DNA from: an uncultured Candidatus Saccharibacteria bacterium | GTDB lineage: Bacteria > Patescibacteriota > Minisyncoccia > UBA11713 > 2-01-FULL-45-33 | Assembly (NCBI GenBank): GCA_964464405.1 | Contig: CAYXFX010000003.1 | Span: forward strand, 6,410-70,409 | DNA: 64,000 nt | Direction of reading: 5' to 3' | Shown: piece after piece, positions 2,789 through 41,820 of the stretch | Layout: each line of letters begins with the position of its first letter | Position numbering within the stretch: the first letter of the stretch is position 1 | Program-made: the position numbers and the translations under genes | Notes under the pieces: generated by a model | The model's input: only the letters and a program-made list of their open reading frames with translations | What the model was told of the DNA's origin: nothing | Databases searched by the model: none

Positions 2789-4819
2789 TTATTTTAAAAA
2801 CGGAATGAGCAAAAGCGCAACAATATTTACCACCTTTATCATCGGATTTATCGCGGGGCCAGCCGTGTCTTTGTATGGGTCACCGACTGTGTCTCCGGTT
2901 ACAGCGGCCTTGTGCGCATCCGATCCTTTCCCGCCGTAATTTCCCTCTTCAATATATTTTTTAGCGTTGTCCCACGCGGCACCTCCTGATGTCATTGAAA
3001 TTGCAAGAAAAAGCCCTGTCACTATTACTCCGACGAGTAAACCTCCTAAAGCTTTTGGCCCCAACCAAAATCCTACGATTATTGTCACCAAAATCGGTAA
3101 AATTGCCGGAATTATCATTTCTCGTAAAGCCGCTTTTGTAACAATGTCTACGGTTGCGGCATAATCCGGCTTGGCAGTGCCTTCCATTATTCCTTTTATT
3201 TCCCGAAATTGCCTGCGCACTTCTTCGACAACGCTCCCAGCGCTTTTTCCAACCGCGCGCATTGCCATTGAGGCAAAAATATACGGGAGCATTCCTCCTA
3301 AGAAAAGGCCTGTAATTACCAATGGGTCCGAAAGCTCGAAAGTAATTTCAAGCCCTTTTGAAGCAAGATCTGCTGCGTAAGCTGCAAAAAGAACCATTGC
3401 CGCAAGCCCTGCTGAAGCGATCGCGTATCCTTTCGTTACAGCTTTTGTTGTATTCCCGACAGCGTCTAAAGGGTCAGTAATATCGCGCACCTCTTTTCCT
3501 AACCCTGCCATTTCCGCAATTCCTCCAGCATTATCAGTAATAGGGCCAAACGAATCTATCGCGACAATTATCCCAGTCATAGACAGCATAGAAACTCCGG
3601 CTACTGCAATTCCGTAAAGCCCGGCAAAATTAAATGCAGTATACGCGCCGACTGAAATTAAAATTGCGGGGAGCGCCGTTGACTCAAGCGACATCGCAAG
3701 CCCCATAATAATATTTGTGCCATGCCCAGAAAGAGAACTTTTTGCGATCGATTTAACGGAACGAAATTTTTTTGAAGTGTAGTATTCAGTAATGAGCACC
3801 ATTCCTAACGTAACAGCAAGACCAATAAGAGATGCCCAGAAATAATTTATAAAATTTCCGGGGATTTTAACAACATTAAATAATCCTTGTGAAGTCGGGT
3901 TTTGAAAATTAACAACTAAATTTTTTACGGCTAAATAAAATCCTCCAGCGGATAAAATTCCCGCCGCTAACAGTCCTTTGTAAAGAGCGAGCATAATGCT
4001 CTCTGGGCCGGACACTCGTACAAAATAAAAGCCGATTATTGAAGCCCAAATGGCTACGCTTCCCAAAAGCAAGGGAAGTAAAATTGCTCCATTTGCTCCC
4101 GTAAAAATCGATGCTCCTAAAATCATTGCGGCAATTAAAGTTACTGCATAAGTTTCAAAAAGGTCGGCCGCCATACCCGCGCAATCTCCGACATTGTCTC
4201 CTACATTGTCTGCAATAACCGCCGGATTTCGAGGATCGTCTTCCGGGATTCCCGCTTCCGTTTTTCCCACAAGATCTGCGCCCACATCAGCCGCTTTCGT
4301 ATAAATTCCGCCTCCCAAGCGTGAAAACACAGATATTAATGAGCCTCCGAATCCCACCCCGACTAGCGCGAAGATATCTCCTGTCCATTTCCAAAATCCT
4401 GCAACAACCAAAAGGCCTAAACCAACAACCAAAAATCCTGTTACTGCCCCTCCTTTAAAGGCAAGTAAAAAAGCCTCTTTAAGCCCCTTCTTTGCCCCCT
4501 CCGTAACGCGTGAATTTGCCATGACTGCCGTCTGCATTCCAAGAAAGGCGGCGAGAGAAGAAGCAATGGCTCCTATGATAAAACCAATCGCGATGTTTAT
4601 GCCAAGCGACAACCAAAGTAAAATTGCGACAACAACTCCGACCAAAAAAACGGATTTAAACTGGCGTTTAATAAAAGCGCGCGAACCTTCGCGTATTGCG
4701 GAAGCGATCTCGCGCATTTTTTCATCGCCGTCGTCTGCTTTTTTGACACTGCGCCTCAAATAAAGCGCAAAAAGTATTGAAACAACTGCAGTTGTAATTG
4801 CAAAATTCTCGATAGTCAT
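2789..4819 (-). CDS. hppA: Membrane-bound H+-translocating pyrophosphatase
   Basis: 676 aa polytopic protein with [55 protein letters not shown], a diagnostic V-PPase motif. Confidence 0.9.
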
Positions 4820-10735: not shown

Positions 10736-11659
10736 ATGAAAGTTTATGTCGTTCATAAAAACAAAAAGGTTGCAGAATTTTTATGTTCGCTTTTAGAAGA
10801 ATGGGGTTATGACCCGTTGGATCTAGTGAGCTTGATTGTCAGTCCAACTGATAGGCGGTGGGACACGATTGTCACGGTAGACATTTGTAATTATATAAAA
10901 AAAATGGAAAACGACGCGCCGCCAGTAGTTCTTATTGATTTATCAATAAGAGGCAGTACTTGGCTTAGCATGGCGTTAACAGCAATGGTCGCGCAACCAG
11001 CCCAGATTATTTTTATCGCCCACAGAGAAACGGATCCGATCGCTATCAATTTTCATGATCGTATTTACGGAAATATATTGCCTGTGCTTTCGGAGGCGGA
11101 GATTTTTAGCAGCATGGAAATTTTCGCTCTAAAATCTTTGCTCCATGGGGCAAAGAAGACAATAGATATTATCGAGAAAGCAAAAAAAGACTATGTAACA
11201 CGATTGCCGAACGTAGAAGAAACGGACAGGCTTCTCGAGATAATTTTTAGACAAAACAAACAAATGTCCGTAATAATAATTGATATCGATAATTTCAAGT
11301 ACTTAAATGATACGTGCGGCCACGAAGCAGCGGATGAAGTTTTGAGATGGGTTGGGAAAAGAATAAGGAGAGCGGTAAGACCGCAGGATTTGGTTGGAAA
11401 ATATAAGAAGGGCGACGAATTTTTAGTGGCAATCTCTAATTTTTTACCCAAAGAAGAAATTGAGAAAATGACGGAGCGCATAAAAGCCGCTGTTATCCGG
11501 CCAATCAAAGTTAGAAGGAGAAAAGAACCCATCATCGCTGAAATTTCGGCAGGTTACGCAAGCAAAGAAAAAAACAAATCTCTAGGGTCTTTGAAAGAGG
11601 ATGCGGATAAAAACATGCTTCAAGAAAAAGCACTAAAAGGTCACGTGATAGTTATATAA
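10736..11659 (+). CDS. GGDEF-domain protein with degenerate active-site motif (KGDEF) and a REC-like N-terminus
   Basis: IIIDIDNFKYLNDTCGHEAADEVL and KYKKGDEFLVAI match a diguanylate cyclase fold, but GG(D/E)EF is replaced by KGDEF. Confidence 0.6.
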   Translation: MKVYVVHKNKKVAEFLCSLLEEWGYDPLDLVSLIVSPTDRRWDTIVTVDICNYIKKMENDAPPVVLIDLSIRGSTWLSMALTAMVAQPAQIIFIAHRETDPIAINFHDRIYGNILPVLSEAEIFSSMEIFALKSLLHGAKKTIDIIEKAKKDYVTRLPNVEETDRLLEIIFRQNKQMSVIIIDIDNFKYLNDTCGHEAADEVLRWVGKRIRRAVRPQDLVGKYKKGDEFLVAISNFLPKEEIEKMTERIKAAVIRPIKVRRRKEPIIAEISAGYASKEKNKSLGSLKEDADKNMLQEKALKGHVIVI

Positions 11660-22976: not shown

Positions 22977-24439
22977 AAATATTTAATCTAAAATCAATTA
23001 CAGCTTTTTTGATTGCTTTTATTTTGAGTACAAATATTTTTCTTCCGAATATTGTTTTTGCCGAAACAGAAGTTTCGCCCGACGAGCTGATGGATCCGTT
23101 TGCCGGGCAAGATCTTTCCGGAGGCGCGGGAGATTCGGGGTTAGGAAGCATTCCGGGAATCGGAGGGCTTTTAAGCGGAGCGCTTCGCACAAATCTGGTT
23201 CCTATCAGCATGCAGCAAGATATCCCGGGGACAGCGCGCGACATCGCAAATAAAATTGCGTGGGGAATTGCAAAAATGATGATACACCAATTAACCCAAC
23301 AGATAGTGCAGCTCATCCGGACTGGAGGGCAGGGCGGCGGAGCTTTGTTTGTACAAGATTGGCAAGGCTTTTTGCTTGATGCGGCGGACCAGGCAAGCGG
23401 GGTTTTTTTGCAAGAACTTAATTTAACACAACTCTGCCAGCCATTCGGGATAAAACTGCGCTTGCTTTTCGCGGATGATAGTGCGCGCCTTCCTTTACAA
23501 AGAAGGCTTTCGTGCACCGTTTCAACAGTCGCAAGAAATATTCAGGGATTTCTTGACGATTTTAATAATGGAGGGTGGGCGAGGTGGTTTGAAATCACGC
23601 AAGTTCCGCAAAATAATTTTTATGGCGCATATTTAATTGCATTGGATGACAAGTTAACCCGTGAAGCAAATGCGGTCGCAGCCGCGCGAAACGAGGCAAT
23701 TTCAGCAAATGGATTTATCGGAGTAAAAGAATGTGAACCAACAGTTGAAACAGAACCGGGAGATGCGCCCATCGGAGAAGTTTGTAAAATTGTAAGTCCG
23801 GGAAAATATTTGGAAAATCGTTTAGCTGAAGCGACCACCGATGATATTCGTCAACTAGGACTCGCTGATTCATTTAATGAAATTTTAATCGCTGCTTTTC
23901 AATCCTTAATAAACAACCTCTTCTTCTCGCAAGGCGGGCTTGCAAGCTCAAATATCAGATCTTCCACCATCAGAAATCAGCTGCAAGAAGACTTGTTTAC
24001 CGTAAAACAAAGTGGGCTACAGCTTTCGGGAATTGATTCTGCGATAGCCGCAACAAAAGCAATTATAAACAAAAAACAAAACTCGCTCGCGAAAATCAAT
24101 GAAGCGCTAGACGCACTAGGAAATTTAAAAACATGCCTACAAGACGGCGGAAAAACATTGGCTTCGGCAAATACAGATATCAATTCCGCCACAACCGTTA
24201 AAACATCGCTTGAAAACGACTTGCTTGACCAAAATATTCTTTTAATAAATTTAGAAGACGACAAATTTGATATGACAAACGCGTCCACTGTCGCAACCCT
24301 TAACGACGCGCTTTCAAAAGCGTATGAAAATGTATCCGAGGTCGGATCATACGCAATAGCAGCCGCAGAAAACAGCCAAATTACAACCATTCGCACAAAA
24401 GCGGTTTCGGATTTAACATCATGTGAAAATTCAAACTAA
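22973..24439 (+). CDS. Secreted hypothetical protein (488 aa)
   Basis: Signal peptide MKIFNLKSITAFLIAFILSTNIFLPNIVFA; translationally coupled (ATGA overlap) to its neighbours. Confidence 0.45.
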   Translation: MKIFNLKSITAFLIAFILSTNIFLPNIVFAETEVSPDELMDPFAGQDLSGGAGDSGLGSIPGIGGLLSGALRTNLVPISMQQDIPGTARDIANKIAWGIAKMMIHQLTQQIVQLIRTGGQGGGALFVQDWQGFLLDAADQASGVFLQELNLTQLCQPFGIKLRLLFADDSARLPLQRRLSCTVSTVARNIQGFLDDFNNGGWARWFEITQVPQNNFYGAYLIALDDKLTREANAVAAARNEAISANGFIGVKECEPTVETEPGDAPIGEVCKIVSPGKYLENRLAEATTDDIRQLGLADSFNEILIAAFQSLINNLFFSQGGLASSNIRSSTIRNQLQEDLFTVKQSGLQLSGIDSAIAATKAIINKKQNSLAKINEALDALGNLKTCLQDGGKTLASANTDINSATTVKTSLENDLLDQNILLINLEDDKFDMTNASTVATLNDALSKAYENVSEVGSYAIAAAENSQITTIRTKAVSDLTSCENSN

Positions 24440-27400
24440 AATGAATTTCTTCAAAAATAAAAATTTAAAAATTATTTTATTAAGCGCTTTGGTTTTGGCG
24501 CTCTTAATTAATTTTGGCTTTAACGTTCCAAACGCGGAAGCGGCCGGCACAAAATTTGGGAGCCAGCTGAAAACAAACCTGCAATCCGGCTTTAAATCTC
24601 TGGGAAGCGACATTGCAAGCGCGTCTGTTTATATTGCGGTAATTTATGTTGTTTTATTTGTTATACTCCAAGTGCTTTTATGGTTTTTTGACGCAGCTTC
24701 TCAATTAATAAATGCCGCCTTCGCGTTTGCAACTCGTCCGGAATGGTACAACAACGAAGCGGTTACGGCGGCTTGGACGATAATTCGGAATTTTGCCAAT
24801 ATCTGGTTTATTTTTCTTTTGCTTTTCGTAGCAATTGCAACCATTTTGCGTGTCCAGCGCTACCAGGCCAAAGAAATGGTGCTATGGATAATTATAATGG
24901 CAATTTTAATTAATTTCAGTTTGCCTATTACTAAAATTATTATAGACGTTTCAAATATTTTAACTTTTCAATTTGTTAAAACTATGGGGGTTTTGATAAC
25001 GAACGAAAAAACAAATGGAAGGGTTTATGACATTGCAGGAACAATTGAAAATAGTGTGGGAGTCAGAAGATTAATCAATGATACCGAATCTGATTATGCA
25101 GTTCCGGGGTTGGAACAAGAAAAAGTGCAATCACCCGAAAAAACGCAACAAAATACTCAGGGTTTTGTACCAGTCAATCAAGGAGAAGCCAATACTTTTT
25201 CTATTTTACCGCACGCAAAAGCGGTTATTGATCCGATTTCTATCGGCATCGGCGTGCTTGTATGGATCGGTCTCAATGTTGTCGCCCCAGCTGCCCTCGG
25301 ATGGGTCGCGTATCAAATCGGTTTTGCCGGAGTGATTCTCAATCCGATAATTAACTTATTGATCAGCAACATTCTCATCGGATTTGCGGTTTATGTAATA
25401 ATTTCTTTGGCAATATTTTTATTAATAAGGACTGTAGCGCTTATGTTTTTGGTGGCCACTTCGCCTGCCGGATTTTTACTTTCAGCTTTTCCGGGTTTTT
25501 CAACTTATTCCAGCAAATGGTGGAGTGCTTTATTAAATCAAGCATTCTTCGCGCCCGCGGTAGCGTTTCTTTTGTGGCTTAGTCTTTCCTTAACCAGCCA
25601 AATACAAATGAATTTAAATCAGCAGGGCCTGACAAATTCCATAATTGATCTTCGAAATGGAAGAATTATATTTTTTGTTTTAACAATAATTTTGCTCTAT
25701 ATGTCGCTGCGCGTTGCAAGAGATATGGGGGCTTACGGAGCAGAAACAGCAATAGGTTTGGGGAAGAAAATTAAAGATTTTGCACTCGGCGGAGTAAAAG
25801 GATTCGCAAAAAGCACGTTTGTCGCGCCAATTGGAAAATCTTTGGAAAAAACCGGCGTTGCCGATCAGCTTGGGCGAATTCCTGTTGTTGGGCCAGTTTT
25901 AGGACGGCAAGCAAATAAAGGAGTTGATTGGTTAAAAACGCGCGGTGCAGCGGATAAAATCGCGCAGGAAGAAGCCAATCTTGGAATGAAACTGCCGGAA
26001 TCTCAAAGAGCGGGATATTTTGGGCGCCTTAATCTGGCCGGGAAAGAAGCATTGCTTCGCAAAATGAGTCCGGACGAGCGCGCCAGATTTATGGAAAATT
26101 TGGAAAAAACTAACCCGAGACAAAAGAAAATAGCGGAAGGAATTATGGGTTCTGCGTTGTTTAGACCGGGAGAACGCGCGCAGTTTGATATTGCGACATA
26201 TAAGCGCATGACCTCACAGCAACAATACGAAAACTTTGATAAATTAAGCGAAGAAGCGCAAAGCGATTTCCTGCACGGAATGGATGCTTCAAAACAAGCT
26301 GAATTTAAAGAAAAATTAAACGCGGACGGCAAAAGAAAACTAAATGATCTTATTGCCTCTCCAAGGTTTTCTCAAAAAGAAAAACAGGATTTCAAAATTG
26401 CAGAAATTATGCAACAAACGGAAGAAGAAAAGCACATCAAATTTGCTTCGGAGCTTAATGACGCAGACAAAGAGACGATGCTTCGCAAAATGTCAGACGA
26501 TCAAAAGACAAAATTCCTCGCGGGTTACAGAAAAACTCCGCCTGCGCAACTTTCTCCACAACAACTCGCGAATTGGAATTCAGCAGATGCAACAGCCCAT
26601 AACATAATTAGCACTAAATTCACTGATTCTGAAAAAAGAACATTCGAGGAAGCTGAGGACAAGCAGTGGATTAAAGATAATTCGAGCAACTTTTCTGCTA
26701 ACTTCATTAACCTTACAAACCCCGTAAAAGAACGCATTTTCAAAACAGCTTCGGACTATCAAAAGGCAGAGCTTGCATTTAAGTTGAGGGACTCCGGAAA
26801 CGAAAACGCAATTAGAGATCTGTCAAACAAACTAACTCCGGAAGAAAAAGACAAATTCTACAAAGAAAACGCAAATTATGTAGCCCGCCAAAAAGTTGCG
26901 GACATCGAAAGAATTGCGCCCAAACTCGAAAACGAAGAACTAGATTATTTTGTTCGCAGCGCTGACATTTTCAAAGTTTCCGAACTGCTAAACACGACAC
27001 AAAATAACATTGTTCTAGGGAAAATAGGAACAAGCATACGCAGACAGGGCTCGGGCCAAAAACTTGCGGGCTCCGTCCGACCAAATATTTATGTCGAGGA
27101 GATCAAAGGAATTGCGCGGCTCGATCCAACTGGAAATATTTCTGATAACTATAAAACAGAGCTTAAAAAACATTACGCAACTTCTGATCCAAAAGTTTTA
27201 CGAAACCTGCTTACTCCGGAGATAATTAAACAGCCGGAAATTTTTGATGATCTTTTAATTGCTGGTTCTCTTAAAAATTTTGCTGATATAACCACGGATT
27301 CTTTGCGCGCCGCGGCAGTAAAAGAAAAAATTGACGAACAAATCCATAACGCACATGCTGCAAATCATCTGCAACAAACCATCCAAAAAATAAATACTGA

Positions 27401-27683
27401 TCCACAACTATCAAGAGAGTATAATAATTTAATAAACAACTATTTAGCCACCGCTGGAGGCATTCCCGGTGCACAGGCGCTTGCACAAACCACAGCAATT
27501 AACGAGATGTTGAACACAAATACGCGCGCTCGCGCTGAAGCTTTAGCTGAAATTCTGGAAAGTAAGACAAATACACAAACAGCACAACAAATCAGAGACC
27601 AGCTTAGCCAGCCGGGCGCGCCGAACCGGCCGTTTCTAGAAAGATTATTAAAAGGTGAGCCTCCAAAAGGCAAATTAAAATAA
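24423..27683 (+). CDS. TrbL/VirB6-like polytopic membrane protein with a 600-aa repetitive hydrophilic C-terminal extension
   Basis: Signal peptide, then 6 or more TM helices in the first 450 aa in a VirB6-like arrangement; C-terminus has repeated LRKMSxDxxxxF-type units. Confidence 0.5.
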   Translation: MKIQTKMNFFKNKNLKIILLSALVLALLINFGFNVPNAEAAGTKFGSQLKTNLQSGFKSLGSDIASASVYIAVIYVVLFVILQVLLWFFDAASQLINAAFAFATRPEWYNNEAVTAAWTIIRNFANIWFIFLLLFVAIATILRVQRYQAKEMVLWIIIMAILINFSLPITKIIIDVSNILTFQFVKTMGVLITNEKTNGRVYDIAGTIENSVGVRRLINDTESDYAVPGLEQEKVQSPEKTQQNTQGFVPVNQGEANTFSILPHAKAVIDPISIGIGVLVWIGLNVVAPAALGWVAYQIGFAGVILNPIINLLISNILIGFAVYVIISLAIFLLIRTVALMFLVATSPAGFLLSAFPGFSTYSSKWWSALLNQAFFAPAVAFLLWLSLSLTSQIQMNLNQQGLTNSIIDLRNGRIIFFVLTIILLYMSLRVARDMGAYGAETAIGLGKKIKDFALGGVKGFAKSTFVAPIGKSLEKTGVADQLGRIPVVGPVLGRQANKGVDWLKTRGAADKIAQEEANLGMKLPESQRAGYFGRLNLAGKEALLRKMSPDERARFMENLEKTNPRQKKIAEGIMGSALFRPGERAQFDIATYKRMTSQQQYENFDKLSEEAQSDFLHGMDASKQAEFKEKLNADGKRKLNDLIASPRFSQKEKQDFKIAEIMQQTEEEKHIKFASELNDADKETMLRKMSDDQKTKFLAGYRKTPPAQLSPQQLANWNSADATAHNIISTKFTDSEKRTFEEAEDKQWIKDNSSNFSANFINLTNPVKERIFKTASDYQKAELAFKLRDSGNENAIRDLSNKLTPEEKDKFYKENANYVARQKVADIERIAPKLENEELDYFVRSADIFKVSELLNTTQNNIVLGKIGTSIRRQGSGQKLAGSVRPNIYVEEIKGIARLDPTGNISDNYKTELKKHYATSDPKVLRNLLTPEIIKQPEIFDDLLIAGSLKNFADITTDSLRAAAVKEKIDEQIHNAHAANHLQQTIQKINTDPQLSREYNNLINNYLATAGGIPGAQALAQTTAINEMLNTNTRARAEALAEILESKTNTQTAQQIRDQLSQPGAPNRPFLERLLKGEPPKGKLK

Positions 27684-27685
27684 AT

Positions 27686-28639
27686 ATGGACGACCAAAAA
27701 CAAAAAGACATATTAGAAACTTACGCGAATTTGCCAGCTGATTTGCAAAACGCACTTTTCGCGCCGCAAACTACGTCCGCAATACGAGAAATTGGAAAAA
27801 AGCACGAACTTACTTTAGATAAAGTCGGAGTTTTGGGAGATGAAACCGGGGCTGTAATGATGGGGCTTGCTCCGCTTAACGAATTTATTAAAAATCTTTC
27901 CATAAAACTCGAGGTGGACCGCACGAAAGCGCGTTCGATTGCAGAAGATATAAACGCGCAGATTTTTAAACCTGTTAGAGAATCATTAAAACAAGTTCAC
28001 CACGTTGTTTCTACAACAGAACCGACTCAAGGCGCCTCTAAGGAAATACCCCCTCCTACTCCCCCTTATAAAGTGGGAGATAATCAGTTTTCCCCTCCTT
28101 TACAAGGAGGGGCCGGGGAGGTAATAACGACCAAACCAGAGGAAAAACTTGAAAGAGAAGTCGTTCCAAAAAGCGAAACCAAAAAAATTCCCCCGCTTCC
28201 CAAAGAAATGATTGACGGGCTTAAATCTAAAATTCCCTCATTTATTGGGGGCAGTTCAGACTCTCCGAAAACCGTAACTTTTGAGCAATCAACAGTTGGT
28301 GGAGAAATTAAAAAACCCGAGCCTCCTGAAAATTTGCCTGTAGAAATTGTTTCCCCGCCGGCCTCCTTGAAGTCCGACTTCAAATCCCAAAAGAAGTCGG
28401 ACTTCATCCCAGCCGGCGAACCAACAATTTTTGCCAAAAAACTGCCGGAGGAGGAACCTTTGGTAATAAAGCCCATGCCCAACCGATTCGGCATGAGCGC
28501 CGCAGAGCCTTCCCAAACTGCTTCGCTGCAATCAGAGTTAGAAAAAGAATTAGGCGGCTCCATCCGTAGAGGAACAGCATCTCCGGACATTCCGCGCCCA
28601 CCCAAAAAAAACGATCCGTATAGAGAACCGATCGAGTAA
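27686..28639 (+). CDS. Pro-rich hypothetical protein carrying in-frame palindromic repeat insertions
   Basis: Conserved-looking N-terminal domain, then a low-complexity Pro-rich region that includes the GC-rich elements (28047-28121) and the KSDF palindromes (28369-28405). Confidence 0.5.
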   Translation: MDDQKQKDILETYANLPADLQNALFAPQTTSAIREIGKKHELTLDKVGVLGDETGAVMMGLAPLNEFIKNLSIKLEVDRTKARSIAEDINAQIFKPVRESLKQVHHVVSTTEPTQGASKEIPPPTPPYKVGDNQFSPPLQGGAGEVITTKPEEKLEREVVPKSETKKIPPLPKEMIDGLKSKIPSFIGGSSDSPKTVTFEQSTVGGEIKKPEPPENLPVEIVSPPASLKSDFKSQKKSDFIPAGEPTIFAKKLPEEEPLVIKPMPNRFGMSAAEPSQTASLQSELEKELGGSIRRGTASPDIPRPPKKNDPYREPIE

Positions 28640-28653
28640 ATTAGCATCGCATT

Positions 28654-29097
28654 ATGCAATACCAAGTACCACAATTTATAGAAGTAGAAGATAAAATTTT
28701 CGGGCCGTTAACCGGAAAACAATTTTTCTATATCTTAGGCGGAGGAGCTATTATATTCATTATGTACATTTACCTGCAGCTTTGGGTTGTTATTCTTTTT
28801 GGCATACCTGTCGCTGGCCTTACTGCCTCTTTAGCGTTTTTAAAAATCAACGGAATGCCTTTTATAAAAGTTTTAAATAATGCAGTCGGATACGCAGTTT
28901 CGTCCCGGCTTTACCTTTGGAAAAAAAGTACAAAACTATCGGCGTCCCTGAAATTTGAAACTAAATCTGGCGAGAAGTCGGACTTTTTGCCAGCCAACAT
29001 CCCAACAACCATTCCCGAAGCTGCTCCAAAACTTACAGAAAACAAATTACAAGATTTAGCATGGTCGCTCGACATTAAGCAGCAAATTAAACGTTAG
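28654..29097 (+). CDS. PrgI-family / VirB3-like small membrane protein
   Basis: MQYQVPQFIEVEDKIFGPLTGKQFFYILGG + 2 TM, typical of PrgI-like proteins that precede VirB4 in Gram-positive-type T4SS. Confidence 0.5.
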   Translation: MQYQVPQFIEVEDKIFGPLTGKQFFYILGGGAIIFIMYIYLQLWVVILFGIPVAGLTASLAFLKINGMPFIKVLNNAVGYAVSSRLYLWKKSTKLSASLKFETKSGEKSDFLPANIPTTIPEAAPKLTENKLQDLAWSLDIKQQIKR

Positions 29098-29110: not shown

Positions 29111-29761
29111 ATGGTCCAAGCGCAACCCACACAAAATATATTAAAAATAGAAGAAATAAGAGACGGGGTCTTAATTTTAAAAGACGGATCTTACCGCGCG
29201 ATTTTAATGGCATCGTCCTTGAATTTCGCGTTAAAAAGTACGGAAGAACAGAATGCAATTATTTACCAGTATCAAAATTTTTTAAACTCACTCGACTTTT
29301 CCGTTCAATTCTTTATTGAATCAAGAAATTTAAATATTGAGCCCTATATCGAAACCTTAAAAGAAACGGAATCAAAACAGACAAACGACCTTTTAAAAAT
29401 TCAAATTACTGAATACATAGATTTCGTCCGCACTTTCGTACGCGCTGCGAATATTGTATCAAAAAGTTTCTTTGTTGTGGTTCCTTTTTCTCCGCCCTTA
29501 TTTAATACGCCGCAGGAGGGATTAAAAAATGTTTTCGGCGGATTTTTCGGAAAAAATAAAAATGTAGATGCAAATAAATTAGATCAGGAAAAGTTTGAAG
29601 AATATAAAACGCAGCTTTGGCAAAGGGTGGACAACGTAATTCAAGGGCTTGTTAGAATGGGAGTAAAAACCGTTCCATTAAATACGGAGGAAATAATAGA
29701 ATTGTTCTACGGATTATATAATCCTGGAGAGCTAGAAAAAGGAAAGCCACCTATGGCGTAA
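29111..29761 (+). CDS. VirB4-like ATPase, N-terminal fragment (216 aa); terminated by in-frame TAA-TGA
   Basis: ILKIEEIRDGVLILKDGSYRAILMASSLNFALKSTEEQNAIIYQYQNFLNSLDF resembles the extreme N-terminal region of Gram-positive-type VirB4 (TrsE/PrgJ-like). Same reading frame as the downstream ORF. Confidence 0.45.
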   Translation: MVQAQPTQNILKIEEIRDGVLILKDGSYRAILMASSLNFALKSTEEQNAIIYQYQNFLNSLDFSVQFFIESRNLNIEPYIETLKETESKQTNDLLKIQITEYIDFVRTFVRAANIVSKSFFVVVPFSPPLFNTPQEGLKNVFGGFFGKNKNVDANKLDQEKFEEYKTQLWQRVDNVIQGLVRMGVKTVPLNTEEIIELFYGLYNPGELEKGKPPMA

Positions 29762-29803
29762 TGAGTCACTAAACATAAAACATTAAATACAAAGATAAAA
29801 AAT

Positions 29804-31618
29804 ATGCTTGGATTTGGAAAAAAAGAAAAAGAACCAGAGTTAACGCCAGTTTTCCCAGAGGAAATTTACCGCGCGGGCGTGCTAGATTTAAAAGACGTTA
29901 TTGCGCCTTCGGCTCTTGAGATTACTTCGAATTTCGTGCGTTTAGGAGAAAAACTCGCGCGCACTATGTTTGTTTTTGCTTTTCCAAGATTTCTTTCATC
30001 TAACTGGTTTGCACCGATAATAAACTTAGACAAAGTTATGGACGTATCTATGTATATACATCCCGTAGACACATCCATGGTTTTAAAACGCCTCGAAAGG
30101 AAAGTTGCGGAAGTGCAATCGCAAATTACTGTGCGCCAAGATAAAGGCCTTGTAAGAGATCCTGTGCTAGACACCGCTTATCAAGATTTGGAATCTTTGA
30201 GAGATCGGCTTCAGCAGGCACAGGAAAAACTTTTCAGCTTTGGTCTTTATATAACTGTTTACGGAAACACGAACGAGGAACTCGATAAATTGGAGAAAGA
30301 AATCAAATCAATGCTTGAATCGCGCCTTGTTTACGTAAAACCGGCGCTCTTCCAGCAAAAAGAGGGGATAGATTCTGTTTTTCCGATGCTTGATGACGTC
30401 ATAAAAATTAATAGTTACTTAAATTCATCTCCCGTATCCAGCGTTTTTCCGTTCGTATCTTTCGACCTTACTTCAAATAAGGGAATACTTTATGGAATTA
30501 ACGCGCATAATAATTCTTTGGTTTTGTTTGATCGTTTTAGTTTGGAAAATTATAATTCCGTGATTTTTGCCAAAGCCGGCGCGGGAAAATCCTATGCAAC
30601 AAAGCTGGAAATTATGAGGTCTTTGATGTTTGATACGGAAGTAATAGTAATTGATCCTGAGCGAGAATACGAATATCTAGCAGAAGCAGTTGGCGGAAGA
30701 TATTTTAATATTTCGCTTTCCTCAAAGCACCACATAAATCCATTCGATCTACCTATGCCTAGAGAAGACGAATCTCCGTCAGATGTTTTGCGGTCGCATA
30801 TCATCAACCTTGTTGGCCTCTTTAGAATCATGCTCGGAGGAATTTCTCCAGAAGAAGATGCAATTATTGATCGCGCAATAACCGAAACATATGCTTCGCG
30901 TGACATAACTCCGGATAGCGATTTCTCTAAAGCCGTTCCTCCGATTCTTTCAGATTTAGAACTTGTGCTTGCAAATATGGAGGGAGGAGAATCTCTCGCG
31001 CAAAGACTTAGGAAATTTACGCAAGGAACATGGGCTGGATTTATAAACCAGCCGACAAATGTCGATATCAACCAAAAATTTATTGTATTTTCGGTACGAG
31101 ATATGGAAGATGATCTTCGGCCGGTTGCAATGTACATTATTATACATTTCATATGGAGCGCAATCCGCGCAGAAATTAAAAAAAGGATTCTTGTTGTGGA
31201 CGAGGCGTGGTGGATTATGAAAAATGAAGACGGAGCATCTTTTCTTTTCGGTATCGCAAAACGAGCAAGAAAATATTATTTAGGCCTTACAACAATTACG
31301 CAGGATGTTTCGGACTTTTTAAATTCGCCTTACGGTAAACCGCTAATCACGAACTCCTCAATACAGATGCTTTTGCGCCAAGCTCCGGCAAGTATTGATA
31401 TTTTAAAAGAAACTTTTAATTTAACTGACGAAGAAAAATTTTTACTTTTAGAATCAGATGTGGGAGAGGGAATATTCTTTGCCGGCTTAAAACATGTGGC
31501 AATAAAAATTTTAGCTTCCTACACAGAAGATCAAATAATTACTTCTGATCCGGCGCAGCTTTTGGCAATTAAAAAAGCAAAAGCTCAATTTTTAGCAGAA
31601 CCAAAAAACGTAATGTAA
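29804..31618 (+). CDS. VirB4/TrbE/CagE-family type IV secretion ATPase (604-aa segment)
   Basis: IAPSALEITSNFVRLGEKLARTMFVFAFPR (VirB4 DUF87-like region), Walker A AKAGAGKSYATKLE, Walker B ILVVDEAWW. Confidence 0.8.
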   Translation: MLGFGKKEKEPELTPVFPEEIYRAGVLDLKDVIAPSALEITSNFVRLGEKLARTMFVFAFPRFLSSNWFAPIINLDKVMDVSMYIHPVDTSMVLKRLERKVAEVQSQITVRQDKGLVRDPVLDTAYQDLESLRDRLQQAQEKLFSFGLYITVYGNTNEELDKLEKEIKSMLESRLVYVKPALFQQKEGIDSVFPMLDDVIKINSYLNSSPVSSVFPFVSFDLTSNKGILYGINAHNNSLVLFDRFSLENYNSVIFAKAGAGKSYATKLEIMRSLMFDTEVIVIDPEREYEYLAEAVGGRYFNISLSSKHHINPFDLPMPREDESPSDVLRSHIINLVGLFRIMLGGISPEEDAIIDRAITETYASRDITPDSDFSKAVPPILSDLELVLANMEGGESLAQRLRKFTQGTWAGFINQPTNVDINQKFIVFSVRDMEDDLRPVAMYIIIHFIWSAIRAEIKKRILVVDEAWWIMKNEDGASFLFGIAKRARKYYLGLTTITQDVSDFLNSPYGKPLITNSSIQMLLRQAPASIDILKETFNLTDEEKFLLLESDVGEGIFFAGLKHVAIKILASYTEDQIITSDPAQLLAIKKAKAQFLAEPKNVM

Positions 31619-31696: not shown

Positions 31697-32677
31697 ATGA
31701 ACGGTTTAAGTAAAATATTAATAGTCAGTTCGTTACTGCTAATCGCATTCTATGCAGAAGCTCTTACAATTTCAACCGATAATTTGGTGTTGTCTCCTTC
31801 TCCCGCATATCCCAAAGCGAATTCTGAATTTATTATAAAAGCAAAAACATTTTCTTTTGACGCAACTCGCGCGCGTTTTACGTGGTATCTTGATGGTAAA
31901 AAAATCGACGAAGGAACAGGGTTAACCGAACAAACATTTGTGGCAAGAAAGCTTGGATCAAAAATGAATATCCGCGCGGCAGTCCTATCCGCAGATGGGG
32001 AATATTTTGAGGACAGCATCACGATTTCGGTTTCCGATATAGATTTAATTATTTCTCCGCTTACATATACTCCTCCTTTTTATAGAGGCGCGCCCCTAGC
32101 TTCTCCCGGAAGTGTGGTTGAAATTATCGCGATCCCGCATTTATATTCTGGCTCTGCAAGAATTAATCCCCAAAGTTTGATTTACGAATGGTCGTTAAAT
32201 AATAAACCAGTTCAAAATCAATCCGGGGGAGGTAAAAACATACTTTCACTTAAATTAGCGGACGTTTCAAATAGTGAACAAGTTGTTACCTTAAAAGCGA
32301 GCACTGTTTCCGGAAACACGTCTGTTGAAAGAAATGTGCGCGTTAGAACATACCAGCCAGAAATACTTTTTTACGAAACAAATTCCGTAACCGGCAAAAA
32401 AGTAAAAGCTTCATCTTTTTTTAATTTTACTCCAGCAAGCTCTTTTTCAATATTAGCCGAGCCATTTTATATGGCTTTGGAATCTCTTTTAAAATCAAAA
32501 TTCACATGGTTTGTAAACGGAAATATTTTTTCGGAAAACGCAAAAAACCCGTTGGTGTTAGATTTAACTGCTCCACCGGATTCGGAATCACAAACAAATT
32601 TTTCTTTAAAAATCGAAGATGTAGGCACTCTTTTTCAAAGAGTAAGCGGAATTTTAACGGTTAGAATAACAAAATGA
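31697..32677 (+). CDS. Secreted hypothetical protein (326 aa), beta-rich
   Basis: Signal peptide; no recognised domain. Confidence 0.45.
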   Translation: MNGLSKILIVSSLLLIAFYAEALTISTDNLVLSPSPAYPKANSEFIIKAKTFSFDATRARFTWYLDGKKIDEGTGLTEQTFVARKLGSKMNIRAAVLSADGEYFEDSITISVSDIDLIISPLTYTPPFYRGAPLASPGSVVEIIAIPHLYSGSARINPQSLIYEWSLNNKPVQNQSGGGKNILSLKLADVSNSEQVVTLKASTVSGNTSVERNVRVRTYQPEILFYETNSVTGKKVKASSFFNFTPASSFSILAEPFYMALESLLKSKFTWFVNGNIFSENAKNPLVLDLTAPPDSESQTNFSLKIEDVGTLFQRVSGILTVRITK

Positions 32678-33492
32678 ACATTTTAAAAAATTTTAAAAAA
32701 AACACAAGGGGAAGAGGTGGGGGGAAGTCGCTCCAATATGTTTTCGGAGTTCTCGTTATTTTTATGCTTCTTATAACCATATCTAGCCCCACACTCGCCG
32801 CTGAAGATAATGCGACTTACAAACTAATACAGCCGCTTCCGGGAACTCCGGGAAGCGGAGGACCAATAACGGATGTGGGGGGAGATATGCCTTTTGCGCA
32901 ATATATGCAGCGTATCATTCCTTTTATTCTGGCATTTGCAGCGCTTTTAGCTTTGGTGCAAATTGTGGTAGGTGGTTTCGAATATGGGCTTTCCGCAATA
33001 CCGGGCATAAAAGTTGAAGGGAAAGATAGGATAACTAGCGCGCTTTGGGGACTTGGGCTTGCGTTAATTTCTTGGCTGATACTCCGCACAATCAATCCGG
33101 ATTTGGTAAATTTGAAATTTTTTGTACCACGCCCAGTTGGTTTATCGTCACAATCGTCCCCGCCCACACAATCTACAAAAACAAACGATTTACAGCAAAG
33201 TGGCGCCGTAGAAGTAACAAATCCGAACAGCCGTGGTCCGATTTGCCCACCAGGATCAGATAAAACTTGTGATAGAAACCAGAAGTGCGCACTTAATATG
33301 AATGGTACGAATTATGTGTGTGTAAATACAAATGCAGCACAGTCTGCCGACTCAAAAACTGCATTTTTTTGTTCAGCAAACACAAATATTTGTGCATCTT
33401 TTGGAGGAACAATCGCCCCCGGCCTCGCAAATTGTGGAAAATGTAACTCTGGTTATATTTGCTGTGAAAGAAAAGAGTCTATACCAAAATAA
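32674..33492 (+). CDS. Membrane protein (3 TM) with C-terminal Cys-rich extracellular domain; candidate T4SS pilin-like component
   Basis: TM helices then 14 Cys in the last 90 aa (CPPGSDKTCDRNQKCALN...CGKCNSGYICCERK). The N-terminus (NTRGRGGGKS) resembles a partial GC-rich element. Confidence 0.4.
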   Translation: MNILKNFKKNTRGRGGGKSLQYVFGVLVIFMLLITISSPTLAAEDNATYKLIQPLPGTPGSGGPITDVGGDMPFAQYMQRIIPFILAFAALLALVQIVVGGFEYGLSAIPGIKVEGKDRITSALWGLGLALISWLILRTINPDLVNLKFFVPRPVGLSSQSSPPTQSTKTNDLQQSGAVEVTNPNSRGPICPPGSDKTCDRNQKCALNMNGTNYVCVNTNAAQSADSKTAFFCSANTNICASFGGTIAPGLANCGKCNSGYICCERKESIPK

Positions 33493-33495
33493 AAC

Positions 33496-34725
33496 ATGCA
33501 AAATTTATTAACAAAAAAGAATTTAATAATCGCAGTTGTATCAATTTTAATTATTGTTGGTATTATCATTTTCTTTGCCAGAAAAAATGGTGATAACGAA
33601 AATTCAAATAGTGGAGGATTTTTTGGACTCTTTCCAGCAAGCGAAGAGCCGTCTGTAACCGCACCGTCCGAAACACCCGCCTCGTCGGCGGGCGAGTCGG
33701 ATGTTTCCGCATCCGGAGTTTCCCAAACCCAATCCACATCGACCCCTCCGATCGGAACAATGTTTAGAATTACTGACAATGCTGTTTCTTCACTGGTCGG
33801 GACAAAATCCGGAAACATAAGATATCACAAAAATACACCTGAAAATATCGGGCATTTGTTTGAAAGAAGCGCCGAAGGAAAATCGGAAGAAAAACGTCTT
33901 TCAAATTTCACCATTCCGCAGATTACGAAAGTCGTCTGGTCGCCAGACGCAACGCGCGCTTTGATATTTTATAATTTGGACGGAGAAATAAGAAAAATTT
34001 TGATTGATTACAGATCAACATCAACCCCCAAAACCAATTTCCTTCCGGATGGAATTTTGGACGCCGCATTTTCTCCTGATTCAAAATCTATTGCTTATAT
34101 AAATAGCGAAAATGGTGTTTTTATTGCGACTTCAGATTTTAAATCTCCCAAGAAAATAACGAATAGCGAGGTTTCTAACCCGGAAATCAGCTGGCCTTCA
34201 CCAAATTTTTTATCTTTGAAAACAAAATCTTCGTACGCTTCGCGCGGATATTTATACAAAATGGATATTCGCACAGAAACTCTCGAAAAAATTGCGGAAG
34301 GGTTGGGATTAGATGCCGTTTGGTCCGGTGACGGTTTGGGAGTTTTATATTCGACAGTAAATAGCGCGGGAGAAATGCAAAATTTAATCTACTTAAATAC
34401 AAAAACCGGCGAGAAAAAAGAAATTTTAATTAAGACAGTGGCGGAAAAATGTGCCTTTTTAAATTCGATCAAAACTGTAGCTTACTGCGGCGTCCCCAAG
34501 CTGGATTCCAACGTACTTTCTCAAAAATATCCTGATTCTTGGTGGCAAGGCAGAACTTCTTTTATAGACGATTTTTGGTTATTTGACGTGGCGACAAATC
34601 AATTAGCAAGCTTTATTGCGACTTCATTTGATGTTATTAATCCTAAGCTGATGAGCGACGACTCGTATCTAATTTTTCAGGATAAAATTTCCGGATCATT
34701 ATGGAGTTTGAAACTTAAAATATAA
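33496..34725 (+). CDS. Membrane-anchored TolB-like beta-propeller protein
   Basis: N-terminal TM; repeated WSPD/FSPD PD40-like motifs (VVWSPDATRALIFYN, AAFSPDSKSIAYINS). Confidence 0.5.
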   Translation: MQNLLTKKNLIIAVVSILIIVGIIIFFARKNGDNENSNSGGFFGLFPASEEPSVTAPSETPASSAGESDVSASGVSQTQSTSTPPIGTMFRITDNAVSSLVGTKSGNIRYHKNTPENIGHLFERSAEGKSEEKRLSNFTIPQITKVVWSPDATRALIFYNLDGEIRKILIDYRSTSTPKTNFLPDGILDAAFSPDSKSIAYINSENGVFIATSDFKSPKKITNSEVSNPEISWPSPNFLSLKTKSSYASRGYLYKMDIRTETLEKIAEGLGLDAVWSGDGLGVLYSTVNSAGEMQNLIYLNTKTGEKKEILIKTVAEKCAFLNSIKTVAYCGVPKLDSNVLSQKYPDSWWQGRTSFIDDFWLFDVATNQLASFIATSFDVINPKLMSDDSYLIFQDKISGSLWSLKLKI

Positions 34726-40719: not shown

Positions 40720-41820
40720 ATGAAAATTATTTGTGCCAATCAAAATATTAAAGAAATTCTTTCCATTGCAGAAAGAAATGTTTCAAAAAATCAAACTCTT
40801 CCTATTTTAAATTCTGTTTTTCTTAATGCCGAAGATGGAAAATTACAAGTAAGAGCGACAAATTTAGAAACCGCAATTGAAGCGAATGTTTTCTGTACTG
40901 TAAAAGAAAAAGGATCTTTAGTAATTCCAGCAAAGATTTTATATACTTATCTATCAAATATTAACGATGAACAAATTACACTGCAAAGCCAAAAAAGTAA
41001 TTTATTCATAAAAACAAATAATTCTGAAACAGTAATTAGGGGGATGTCTGTAGATGAATTTCCATTATTTCCGAAAATTGATGTGATAAACTCTTTTTCG
41101 ATGCCATGCGATCTTTTAAAAGAATCATTATCACAAGTTGTAAGTGCGTCTAGCCAATCAGAAATTAAACCAGAACTTGCTAGTGTTTTGTTTAAAATTT
41201 TTAAAAATTCAGTTAAATTTGCAGCAACCGATTCTTTTAGGTTGGCTGAAAAAACTATAGTTTCTAAGACAATCAACTCCGATAAACAATATAATTTTTT
41301 AGTACCACAAAAATCTGTACATGAAATTTTGAGGATTTTAGTTAATAATGAAATTATAAATGTTGGTTTTGGTAAAAATCAAATGATACTTGAAACCAAA
41401 CAACTAAAATTTATTTCACGTCTTACAGACGGCGTATTTCCGGACTATGAACAAATTATTCCTAAAACTTTCAAAACAGACGTTTTAATTACCCATAATT
41501 CAATTTTAAAAAATTTAAAAATAGCTAGTATTTTCGTCGGCAAATTAAACGAAATTAATCTAAATTTTGAGCCACATAAAAAATTAGTTTTAATTTCCGC
41601 ATCACATCCGGAAGCGGGCGAACATTCTTCCGAAGTCAGTGCGAATATTGAAGGAGAAGAAGTAAATATAAAATTTAATTATAAATATTTACTAGACGGT
41701 ATTTCACAGATAAACAGCGAGTATATTTCTTTTAATTTAAACGGCAGCGATTCCCCTCTTTTAATAAAAGGAAAAGGAGACTCATCTTTTATTTATTTAG
41801 CGATGCCGATGAGAGTTTAA
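40720..41820 (+). CDS. dnaN: DNA polymerase III beta sliding clamp
   Basis: 366 aa, three-domain clamp architecture; follows dnaA. Confidence 0.9.
   Translation: MKIICANQNIKEILSIAERNVSKNQTLPILNSVFLNAEDGKLQVRATNLETAIEANVFCTVKEKGSLVIPAKILYTYLSNINDEQITLQSQKSNLFIKTNNSETVIRGMSVDEFPLFPKIDVINSFSMPCDLLKESLSQVVSASSQSEIKPELASVLFKIFKNSVKFAATDSFRLAEKTIVSKTINSDKQYNFLVPQKSVHEILRILVNNEIINVGFGKNQMILETKQLKFISRLTDGVFPDYEQIIPKTFKTDVLITHNSILKNLKIASIFVGKLNEINLNFEPHKKLVLISASHPEAGEHSSEVSANIEGEEVNIKFNYKYLLDGISQINSEYISFNLNGSDSPLLIKGKGDSSFIYLAMPMRV

Follow-up and report, generated by a model that had tools for sequence, protein, structure and literature searches.

TrsD has been described as "the most abundant T4SS component" of Patescibacteria, with 2,272 homologues reported in this phylum, of which 1,664 are associated with virB4 (Quiñonero-Coronel et al. 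2025, PMC12102498). The same study reports remote homology of TrsD to the N-terminal portion of VirB4, an essential TrsD homologue in Ca. Southlakia epibionticum ML1, and Gracilibacteria homologues that do not adjoin virB4. Guglielmini et al. 2014 do not use the name "TrsD" in their main text. A similar pairing is found in the staphylococcal MPF-FATA systems of the pGO1 subclass, in which TrsD and TrsE of pGO1, or TraD and TraE of pSK41-type plasmids, place a ~225-aa protein immediately upstream of a short VirB4; on one staphylococcal plasmid, an unnamed gene encoding 225 aa occupies the traD position and traE (672 aa) comes next. Plasmids of Clostridium, Bacillales, and Sulfobacillus show the order PrgI, TraC-like protein (215 to 318 aa), and VirB4 (606 to 636 aa), and examples of the split include the "TraC family protein" and ATPase of C. 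botulinum pRSJ20_1 as well as genes of Pontibacillus, Geobacillus, Sulfobacillus pY0017, and Halobacillus. In contrast, the VirB4 of the PrgJ (pCF10-type; NCBIfam CD1110) class is one polypeptide of 796 to 818 aa.

The locus analyzed here lies within a 64-kb stretch of DNA, hereafter the window, and matches the Patescibacteria arrangement (Table 1). As in the systems described in PMC12102498, including the Southlakia locus (Wang et al. 2023, cited there), a TrsD homologue from the same phylum adjoins virB4, PrgI/VirB3 lies alongside, and the genes are positioned near the replication origin, with dnaA ~4.5 kb past the end of the gene cluster and ~7.6 kb downstream of ORF2. We found no substantive difference from those systems, and the locus represents a further instance, from Giovannonibacteria, of a two-gene VirB4 arrangement that is conserved in Patescibacteria, already published, and not new. 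Very probably, it encodes the normal two-gene VirB4 energising ATPase of a Patescibacteria (monoderm, MPF-FATA-like) T4SS. Comparison with the staphylococcal pGO1/pSK41-type systems shows the same layout but only remote sequence similarity; those are plasmid conjugation machines, whereas the present T4SS is chromosomal, belongs to an ultra-small bacterium, and probably does not serve conjugation.

Table 1. Features of the two-gene VirB4 locus (window coordinates).
Feature	Position	Strand	Basis or details
PrgI-family (VirB3-like) small membrane protein	28654..29097	+	Pfam PF12666 PrgI
ORF1, TrsD/TraC-like protein	29111..29761	+	216 aa, ATG to TAA
ORF1 conserved C-terminal tail YNPGELEKGKPP	29717..29752	+	near-invariant columns, predicted disordered
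Tandem stop codons TAA TGA ending ORF1	29759..29764	+	read from sequence
A-rich intergenic spacer, 42 nt	29762..29803	+	sequence reading, folding, promoter/terminator scan
ORF2, VirB4 ATPase core	29804..31618	+	604 aa, ATG to stop
Walker A, GAGKSY (ORF2 residues 259-264)	30578..30595	+	string search of translation
Walker B, LVVDEAW (ORF2 residues 463-469)	31190..31210	+	string search of translation

A sequence-only reading of the window had described a VirB4-like ATPase in two ORFs, and its coordinates, the lengths of 216 and 604 aa, the common frame (both starts are 2 mod 3), and the TAA-TGA followed by 13 codons were all read in the sequence. The peptides it quoted are likewise present, at residues 10 to 47 of ORF1 (ILKIEEIRDG...) and at residues 33 to 40 (IAPSALEI) and 52 to 62 (ARTMFVFAFPR) of ORF2. 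Its proposal that both ORFs resemble VirB4 was borne out by the 752-position CD1110-family VirB4 model of NCBIfam (NF045971), which establishes the homology of each piece. Residues 27 to 566 of ORF2 match positions 185 to 733 of this model (E 1.1e-111; 374.4 bits, curated cutoff 325), and residues 8 to 114 of ORF1 match positions 2 to 110 (E 1.9e-9). ORF2 contains what remains of the N-terminal domain together with the P-loop ATPase domain, and its Pfam matches all exceed the gathering cutoff (P-loop_TraG, 85.3 bits; AAA_10, 40.4 bits; DUF87, 29.1 bits). The VirB4_CagE and TraC-F-type models are matched by ORF2 from about position 230 to 270 onwards. Judged from its sequence, ORF2 is a VirB4 family T4SS ATPase with putative ATP hydrolysis, hexamer formation, and association with the membrane translocon.

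ORF1 is also matched by positions 103 to 212 of the Mbov_0397 VirB4 model of NCBIfam (E 7.4e-9) and by the TrsD/TraD family model NF041427, a narrower, staphylococcal TrsD model with a curated cutoff of 200, to which the 29.8 bits scored here (E 4.8e-7) do not come close. We took the family name from precomputed annotations, in which Pfam PF26593 "TraC-like" (related to TrsD/TraD) is assigned to a protein identical to ORF1 and to all of its best 120 homologues; a scan using a Pfam copy older than PF26593 gave no match for ORF1. With its own stop codon and 216 aa, ORF1 falls within the stand-alone length class of the TrsD/TraC-like family, ~200 to 300 aa. The earlier reading had held that a stand-alone family unrelated to VirB4 and never fused to it would speak against its proposal. 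ORF1 does have a stand-alone family of its own, but that family is homologous to the VirB4 N terminus and is occasionally fused to VirB4.

Structural comparison points in the same direction. The AlphaFold model of ORF1 has a pLDDT of 73.6, and its best 13 Foldseek matches in the PDB are all R388 T4SS entries containing TrwK/VirB4 (7O41, 7O42, 7O43, 8RTB, and 8RTD), with probabilities of up to 0.99, E 2.6e-3, and modest TM-scores of 0.38 to 0.46, normalised to the query. A profile of the ORF1 family gave no matches to PDB sequences even at E 10, so the link to TrwK/VirB4 in the PDB is a purely fold-based one. The R388 protein differs in being a single chain from a diderm host, with VirB8 and VirB10 as partners and 10 to 13% sequence identity. 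At the present locus, VirB8 and VirB10 partners were not identified, and the neighbouring genes of the cluster (1086, 317, 326, 272, and 409 aa) had weak or no matches in the NCBIfam and Pfam scans.

The sequence-only reading had also suggested alignment to full-length VirB4 as a check on colinearity, and together ORF1 and ORF2 do prove colinear with fused proteins of 796, 797, and 818 aa. Residues 27 to 561 of ORF2 align with residues 228 to 772 of the 818-aa L. paracasei VirB4 and with residues 222 to 772 of the 796-aa E. faecalis PrgJ-like VirB4, and the N-terminal extension that precedes the ORF2-like part of the fused VirB4s is ~220 aa, the size of ORF1. The counterpart of ORF1 in the single-chain protein is its first ~215 residues. 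A natural fusion of 797 aa occurs in a related MAG, in which residues 4 to 214 align with ORF1 (43% identity) and the alignment with ORF2 begins at residue 225 (58% identity); a single TraC_F_IV match extends across the junction of this protein (27.2 bits, just below the cutoff of 28.1). In terms of sequence, then, the two polypeptides of this locus are colinear with the one polypeptide of Gram-positive single-chain VirB4. The ORF1-family HMM had no match to the S. aureus TraD-position protein or to the N terminus of E. faecalis PrgJ, and its match to the N terminus of the fused L. paracasei VirB4 was weak (E 0.29, with Z deliberately set as high as 1e6). Consequently, the tie between ORF1 and these three proteins comes from the NCBIfam models, the colinearity, and the length arithmetic.

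Because the sequence comes from a metagenome-assembled genome, the stop codons could a priori be spurious, products of faulty assembly or sequencing, and such an error was one of four possibilities that the sequence-only reading listed. An identical ORF1 protein, however, recurs in assemblies of a Candidatus Giovannonibacteria genome, six in all and independent of one another: five from different sequencing runs and one from NCBI. In four of the six (NCBI GCA_016176325.1 and three runs) both genes, of 216 and 604 aa, are complete and spaced as here; the remaining two, from two further runs, have shorter contigs that end inside ORF2. The end of ORF1 and the spacing to ORF2 are called alike in these independent assemblies, which makes it very unlikely that the stop at 29759-29764 is missing, and relatives have a stop at the homologous place. 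We regard an error of this kind as scarcely credible. A canonical single-chain VirB4 of ~800 aa was likewise considered for this locus and ruled out by the tandem stops at 29759-29764, which are repeated in assemblies and conserved in relatives.

The split itself is widespread. Homologues of ORF1 fall into 7309 clusters, of which the top 120 are all 197 to 233 aa in length. Among 20 homologues with 59 to 77% identity, 62 columns are invariant and the C-terminal end is shared. We surveyed species-representative genomes of Patescibacteria, 79 of which could be assessed for the split or fused state; the two genes are separate in every one of them, with the VirB4 gene downstream in 79/79 loci. The ORF1-like proteins of these genomes measure 202 to 272 aa and the ORF2-like proteins 597 to 678 aa, and in 79 of 80 related loci tblastn places a PrgI-like match immediately upstream, in the same orientation. 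Whether the clusters of relatives are also split had been proposed as a check, and the answer is uniform. Fused forms of the PrgJ-like type (796 to 818 aa) are rare in Patescibacteria, being present in 1 of the 150 best representatives. Outside the phylum, the TraC-like proteins of Firmicutes share 24 to 33% tblastn identity with ORF1, the better ones over >90% of its length. Unlike the genes analyzed here, those of the Firmicutes mobile elements overlap by 11 to 14 nt and are in different frames (three loci examined).

These data also bear on recent pseudogenisation, in which a nonsense mutation would have broken a formerly single virB4. Such an event would fit the summed length of ~820 aa, which a canonical VirB4 also has, and the common frame of the ORFs. 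Thousands of stand-alone ORF1 homologues, strongly conserved to a common C-terminal end, and the split in all assessable related species nevertheless lead us to reject it; the split also recurs on distant Firmicutes plasmids, and a homologue is reported to be essential in Southlakia (PMC12102498). A recently broken gene therefore has next to no chance of being the explanation.

The remaining possibility on the earlier list was programmed stop-codon read-through, by which some ribosomes would pass the TAA-TGA and 13 further codons and thereby produce a VirB4 fusion protein of ~834 aa with the junction peptide …GKPPMA-X-X-VTKHKTLNTKIKNMLGF…. The TAA (29759-29761) and TGA (29762-29764) are followed by 13 sense codons before the ATG at 29804, and these contain no ATG, GTG, or TTG and no further stop; along with the common frame and the natural fusion in one related MAG, this speaks for such a mechanism. 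The frame relation and stop context, however, are not conserved in the 79 relatives: the second gene is in frame with the first in 15, at +1 in 37, and at +2 in 27. Spacers range from -29 to +496 nt (median 5 nt), including overlaps such as ATGA, and in one relative (L043) a whole 133-aa ORF is inserted between the TraC-like and VirB4 genes. A tandem stop strengthens termination, no stimulatory RNA structure was found at the junction downstream of the ORF1 stop (MFE -12.4 kcal/mol; shuffled sequences average -10.05; z-score -0.85), and the ATG of ORF2 sits at a position homologous to the starts of its relatives. Nonconserved frame and spacing, the inserted gene, the tandem stop, and the lack of RNA structure lead us to reject read-through, which we consider highly improbable. 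Since only 15 of 79 relatives share it, the common frame of ORF1 and ORF2 is attributed to chance, and the description of a gene "split by" an in-frame TAA-TGA was misleading for what are two ordinary genes lying side by side. Thus, the split is conserved whereas the frame relation is not, and of the four possibilities listed from the sequence, the authentic two-piece VirB4 stands and the other three fall on the frames, the split in 79/79 relatives, and the six assemblies. The 42-nt spacer yielded no Shine-Dalgarno motif and no promoter-like or terminator-like site.

A different question is whether ORF1 still belongs to the ATPase. It might instead be an accessory T4SS protein (e.g., an assembly factor or regulator) that descends from the VirB4 N terminus. 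The Gracilibacteria homologues that stand away from virB4 (PMC12102498) would fit this, as would the extra N- or C-terminal extensions in about one-third of the ORF1-family representatives (261 to 452 aa in total) and a 349-aa "PrgI family protein" of Embleya, which contains a TrsD-like domain fused to PrgI and not to the ATPase. The representatives with 90- to 230-aa N-terminal extensions showed no PrgI match by phmmer with the window's PrgI or by Pfam. Against an accessory role, nearly all loci keep the order PrgI, TrsD-like, VirB4, and the spacers are so short (median, 5 nt) as to suggest coupled expression; fusions to VirB4 occur in both Patescibacteria and Firmicutes; and the segment absent from ORF2 is exactly what ORF1 supplies. 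We consider a purely accessory ORF1 improbable.

The two-gene VirB4 would operate as part of a conserved, co-oriented module that begins with the gene for PrgI, a VirB3-like membrane anchor (PF12666; E 5.4e-10; 40.1 bits, cutoff 27), and continues with the TrsD/TraC-like protein and the VirB4 core. VirB3-VirB4 fusions and the actinobacterial PrgI and TrsD-like fusions of Embleya show that VirB3, VirB4-N, and VirB4-core form a module that exists in several fusion and fission states; unlike in those fusions, all three parts are separate genes here. In R388, VirB3 connects the central VirB4 hexamer to the membrane, whereas the other six of the twelve VirB4 copies lack this link. At the present locus, ORF1 and ORF2 would each be translated alone, ORF1 terminating at the tandem stop. 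By analogy with the R388 structure, the two polypeptides may assemble non-covalently into a VirB4-like unit in which the small piece helps to connect the ATPase with PrgI and with the membrane. The columns for ORF1 residues 200 to 214 are nearly invariant in the 20 homologues, and residues 201 to 216 have a pLDDT of 31 to 39 in the AlphaFold model, making the tail YNPGELEKGKPP a possible docking peptide. More speculatively, and with little expectation that it will hold, the detached piece could be a separately dosed adaptor that joins PrgI to a subset of VirB4 protomers through docking of this tail, such that fission would set stoichiometry in the T4SSs of monoderms and Patescibacteria.

Where adjacent in-frame TraC-like and VirB4 genes occur in Patescibacteria or in many Firmicutes elements, annotators should avoid calling a pseudogene, frameshift, or recoding event, and the small gene is better named a TrsD/TraC-like VirB4 N-terminal homologue than a "hypothetical protein." As Patescibacteria T4SSs are reportedly essential to the epibiotic life style, the locus is a legitimate, though not new, target for structural work on two-chain VirB4 assembly. 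The ORF1-like genes of the 79 relatives end in TAA (59), TAG (13), or TGA (7). Across the genes of the 64-kb window the Shine-Dalgarno motif is near-absent, and TGA terminates 4 of the 41 large ORFs, in agreement with the statement of the sequence-only reading that this codon is used as a stop elsewhere.

The sequence-only reading had described a VirB4-like ATPase of the type IV secretion system (T4SS) divided by an in-frame TAA-TGA, and both coordinates and sequence confirm two in-frame ORFs separated by these stops (see table). Because both start coordinates equal 2 modulo 3, ORF1 (a TrsD/TraC-like protein) and ORF2 (the ATPase core) share one frame, and the 13 sense codons between the tandem stop and the ORF2 ATG include no ATG, GTG or TTG. 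The peptides quoted in that reading and the Walker A and B motifs were found in the translations. TGA is also a stop elsewhere in the window, as had been stated: the 41 large ORFs end in TAA (30), TAG (7) or TGA (4), and since TGA terminates four of them, the standard code applies. The GC content of the window is 38.6%.

Coordinates of the features discussed (window positions unless another sequence is named)
Feature	Position	Strand	Remarks
1086-aa gene	24423-27683		upstream of PrgI, operon-like run; hydrophobic N-terminal half (by eye), long charged C-terminal half
317-aa gene	27686-28639		directly upstream of PrgI, operon-like run with 1086-aa gene
PrgI-family, VirB3-like protein	28654-29097		directly upstream of ORF1
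ORF1	29111-29761	+	216 aa
ORF1 C-terminal tail YNPGELEKGKPP	29717-29752		residues 203-214; nearly invariant across homologues; predicted disordered in monomer model
Tandem stop ending ORF1	TAA 29759-29761, then TGA 29762-29764	+	read from sequence
ORF2	29804-31618	+	604 aa
Walker A GAGKSY	30578-30595	+	within ORF2
Walker B LVVDEAW	31190-31210	+	within ORF2
326-aa gene	31697-32677		downstream of virB4; weak Ig-like/BiPBP_C matches
272-aa gene	32674-33492		downstream of virB4; weak T4SS_pilin match (E 0.042), Cys-rich C terminus
409-aa gene	33496-34725		downstream of virB4; weak TolB-like beta-propeller matches
dnaA	39214-40575
dnaN	40720-41820
Inserted 133-aa ORF, intact	L043 4179-4580		JBBTWL010000085.1
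Degenerate 84-aa remnant of inserted gene	L067 ~4295-4549		JBBTSQ010000032.1
349-aa 'PrgI family protein'	L091 3614-4663		Embleya sp. NBC_00896 plasmid, NZ_CP108778.1; TrsD-like domain at residues 137-234
P0176 fusion gene	L096 544-2937		GCA_964615945.1, CAZTUR010000004.1; single contig

ORF2 is unambiguously a VirB4-family ATPase. It scores above the gathering thresholds of Pfam P-loop_TraG, AAA_10 and DUF87 and reaches 374.4 bits (cutoff 325) against the NCBIfam model 'VirB4-like conjugal transfer ATPase, CD1110 family', covering only model positions 185-733 of 752; its matches to TraC-F-type and VirB4_CagE models begin only at about position 228-267. ORF1 had zero matches in a local copy of Pfam, and a database protein identical to it carries the precomputed Pfam annotation PF26593 'TraC-like'. 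ORF1 also has three NCBIfam matches: to CD1110 VirB4 at the start of the model (positions 2-110; E 1.9e-9), to Mbov_0397 VirB4 at positions 103-212 of 894 (E 7.4e-9) and to the stand-alone 'TrsD/TraD family conjugative transfer protein' (E 4.8e-7). From a 20-sequence alignment, AlphaFold2 modelled ORF1 with a pLDDT of 73.6; when this model was compared with the PDB by Foldseek, each of the top 13 matches was an R388 T4SS entry with TrwK/VirB4 (query-normalised TM-score 0.38-0.46, E from 2.6e-3, probability up to 0.99). The two VirB4 models and the structural matches agree with the proposed likeness of ORF1 to the extreme N terminus of VirB4.

Enterococcal and lactobacillal conjugative plasmids encode VirB4 right after PrgI as one fused protein (796 or 818 aa). 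ORF2 residues 27-561 align to residues 222-772 of the 796-aa protein and 228-772 of the 818-aa protein, whose N-terminal extension of ~220 aa beyond the alignment is the size of ORF1. A related MAG encodes an apparently natural TraC-like+VirB4 fusion (P0176, 797 aa) after PrgI and near dnaA; no other such fusion occurs in the best 150 ORF1-family representatives at 50% identity. ORF1 residues 3-210 align to P0176 residues 4-214 (43% identity) and ORF2 from residue 24 onwards aligns from P0176 residue 225 (58% identity), with a linker of ~10 residues in place of the stops together with the ORF1 tail before them and the initial ~23 ORF2 residues. The one Pfam TraC_F_IV match of P0176 (residues 169-394; 27.2 bits, just under the cutoff of 28.1) crosses the junction, and the split therefore lies inside Pfam's N-terminal domain of F-type TraC/VirB4. 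The suggestion that the two ORFs sum to one VirB4 was correct, as they are colinear both with the 796- and 818-aa Firmicutes proteins and with P0176. ORF1 and ORF2 are two genes, each with its own start and stop, whose products jointly cover a VirB4.

An assembly error could in principle have created the stops. NCBI lists a 216-aa protein identical to ORF1 (hypothetical protein HYS99_00570, Candidatus Giovannonibacteria bacterium), which is encoded in GCA_016176325.1 as well as on independently assembled contigs of five different sequencing runs. Four of these six contigs continue with a complete 604-aa gene at the same 42-nt distance; the remaining two break off inside ORF2. Recurrence of the pair in independent assemblies excludes an assembly error for practical purposes. 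The split might also reflect recent pseudogenisation, which is excluded by a conserved stand-alone ORF1 family and by the organization of related loci. ORF1 homologues (E <= 1e-3) form 7309 clusters at the 90% identity level, and every one of the top 120, which reach down to ~60% identity, has a length of 197-233 aa. When 20 homologues (59-77% identity) are aligned, 62 columns are invariant and the proteins terminate at one conserved tail, ...LYNPGELEKGKPP. At the 50% level there are 2321 representatives, the best 150 of which comprise 98 of at most 260 aa, 51 of 261-452 aa and one of VirB4 length. A one-genome-per-species scan yielded >574 loci with ORF1 homologues; downstream analysis covered the 80 best, one of which had no downstream sequence. 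In all 79 others, as the sequence-only reading had proposed checking, the cluster is split: an ORF1 homologue (202-272 aa) stops and an ORF2 homologue follows (597-678 aa, median 606). Of the 80, 79 have a PrgI-like gene upstream.

Programmed read-through, the explanation to which a shared frame lends itself, fares poorly in the same 79 loci. Relative to the first gene, the second keeps the frame in just 15 and is shifted by +1 in 37 and by +2 in 27; spacers range from overlaps (ATGA, 4 loci) to 496 nt with a median of 5 nt, 14 loci having 1-nt spacers (TAAtATG and similar). The ORF1 homologues end in TAA (59), TAG (13) or TGA (7). Two related Patescibacteria genomes have an insertion here: at locus L043, a complete 133-aa ORF, presumably a four-helix-bundle protein of the 23S rRNA intervening-sequence type, sits between the TrsD-like gene and virB4, and L067 retains a remnant of the inserted gene; the spacers are 442 and 496 nt, respectively. 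In the window, the predicted fold of the junction RNA is no more stable than that of shuffled sequences (z-score -0.85). Given the variable frames, spacers and stops, the inserted gene and the lack of an RNA fold, the frame shared by ORF1 and ORF2 is coincidental. Read-through is not a conserved feature of the junction, and the tandem stop argues for efficient ORF1 termination. A scan found no promoter-like or terminator-like site between the two ORFs, which are probably co-transcribed. ORF2 has no upstream Shine-Dalgarno motif, which is normal here because almost no window gene has one. Within 20 nt upstream of the 41 large ORFs, leaders are A/T-rich and a recognisable Shine-Dalgarno is almost absent, GGAGG-like stretches at 10736 and 51746 being the exceptions. 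Thus, of the four options originally considered, read-through, pseudogenisation and assembly error are rejected on frames, conservation and independent assemblies, and an authentic two-piece VirB4 is supported.

The same module is found outside Patescibacteria. A tblastn search of plasmids with ORF1 returned 37 records. Among the loci inspected, a small TraC-like gene and a VirB4/ATPase gene are paired in C. botulinum pRSJ20_1 (261 aa, 'TraC family protein', and 620 aa), a Pontibacillus plasmid (274 and 621 aa, the latter 'CD1110 family VirB4'), Geobacillus pGspE55-1 (318 and 636 aa), Sulfobacillus pY0017 (231 and 606 aa) and a Halobacillus plasmid (215 and 622 aa). In the C. botulinum, Pontibacillus and Geobacillus pairs, the two genes are in different frames and share 11-14 nt. 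Immediately before traE (672 aa) of a pSK41-type S. aureus plasmid lies a 225-aa gene, unnamed in its record, at the TraD/TrsD position of pSK41/pGO1 systems. On an Embleya (Actinomycetota) plasmid, however, the TrsD-like domain is fused behind PrgI, apart from the ATPase; an XF1762-family gene follows the PrgI-family gene, and then a 643-aa ATPase very similar to ORF2 (E 3e-101). This protein is a third fusion state, and together with the split plasmid genes and fused VirB4s it means that the VirB3-like/VirB4-N/VirB4-core module has several fission and fusion states. VirB3 and VirB4 themselves are sometimes fused (recent review). In some ORF1-family representatives, 90-230 additional N-terminal residues precede the TrsD-like domain (P0227, P0231 and P0262, 364-367 aa; P0267, 452 aa; P0153, P0232, P0254 and P0259, 306-334 aa). 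Neither phmmer with the window PrgI nor Pfam found a PrgI domain in the extended representatives; still, PrgI (147 aa) and ORF1 (216 aa) add up to a length of ~364 aa, which hints at PrgI+TrsD fusions in Patescibacteria.

The two-gene arrangement is already known. Quiñonero-Coronel et al. 2025 (PMC12102498) report 2,272 TrsD homologues across 2,221 assemblies (1,664 homologues are VirB4-associated), with TrsD restricted within MPF-FATA systems to the pGO1 subclass; they list the TrsD homologue of Ca. Southlakia epibionticum ML1 as essential and remark that Patescibacteria T4SS loci are often near the replication origin. Consistent with that remark, dnaA and dnaN lie ~4.5 kb past the end of the window's T4SS cluster, which likely adjoins the origin. 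Given the published TrsD-virB4 association and origin-near loci, the window pair is an instance of this arrangement.

We infer that the ORF1 and ORF2 products join non-covalently into the ATPase energising the T4SS. In the R388 structure, VirB3 links the central VirB4 hexamer to the inner membrane (recent review). The small TrsD-like protein may bridge PrgI and the ATPase, as suggested by the gene order PrgI, TrsD-like, VirB4 core and by the fact that TrsD is found fused to PrgI as well as to VirB4. The ORF1 tail, at pLDDT 31-39 in the AlphaFold2 model, is a candidate docking peptide; conservation combined with predicted disorder is what one expects where a peptide becomes folded upon partner binding.

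No family assignment was obtained for the 1086-aa and 317-aa genes upstream, the sole match of the former being a marginal MgtE_N. By position, the 1086-aa gene is at the place expected for a VirB6-like channel protein. The 326-, 272- and 409-aa products downstream may be T4SS surface components.
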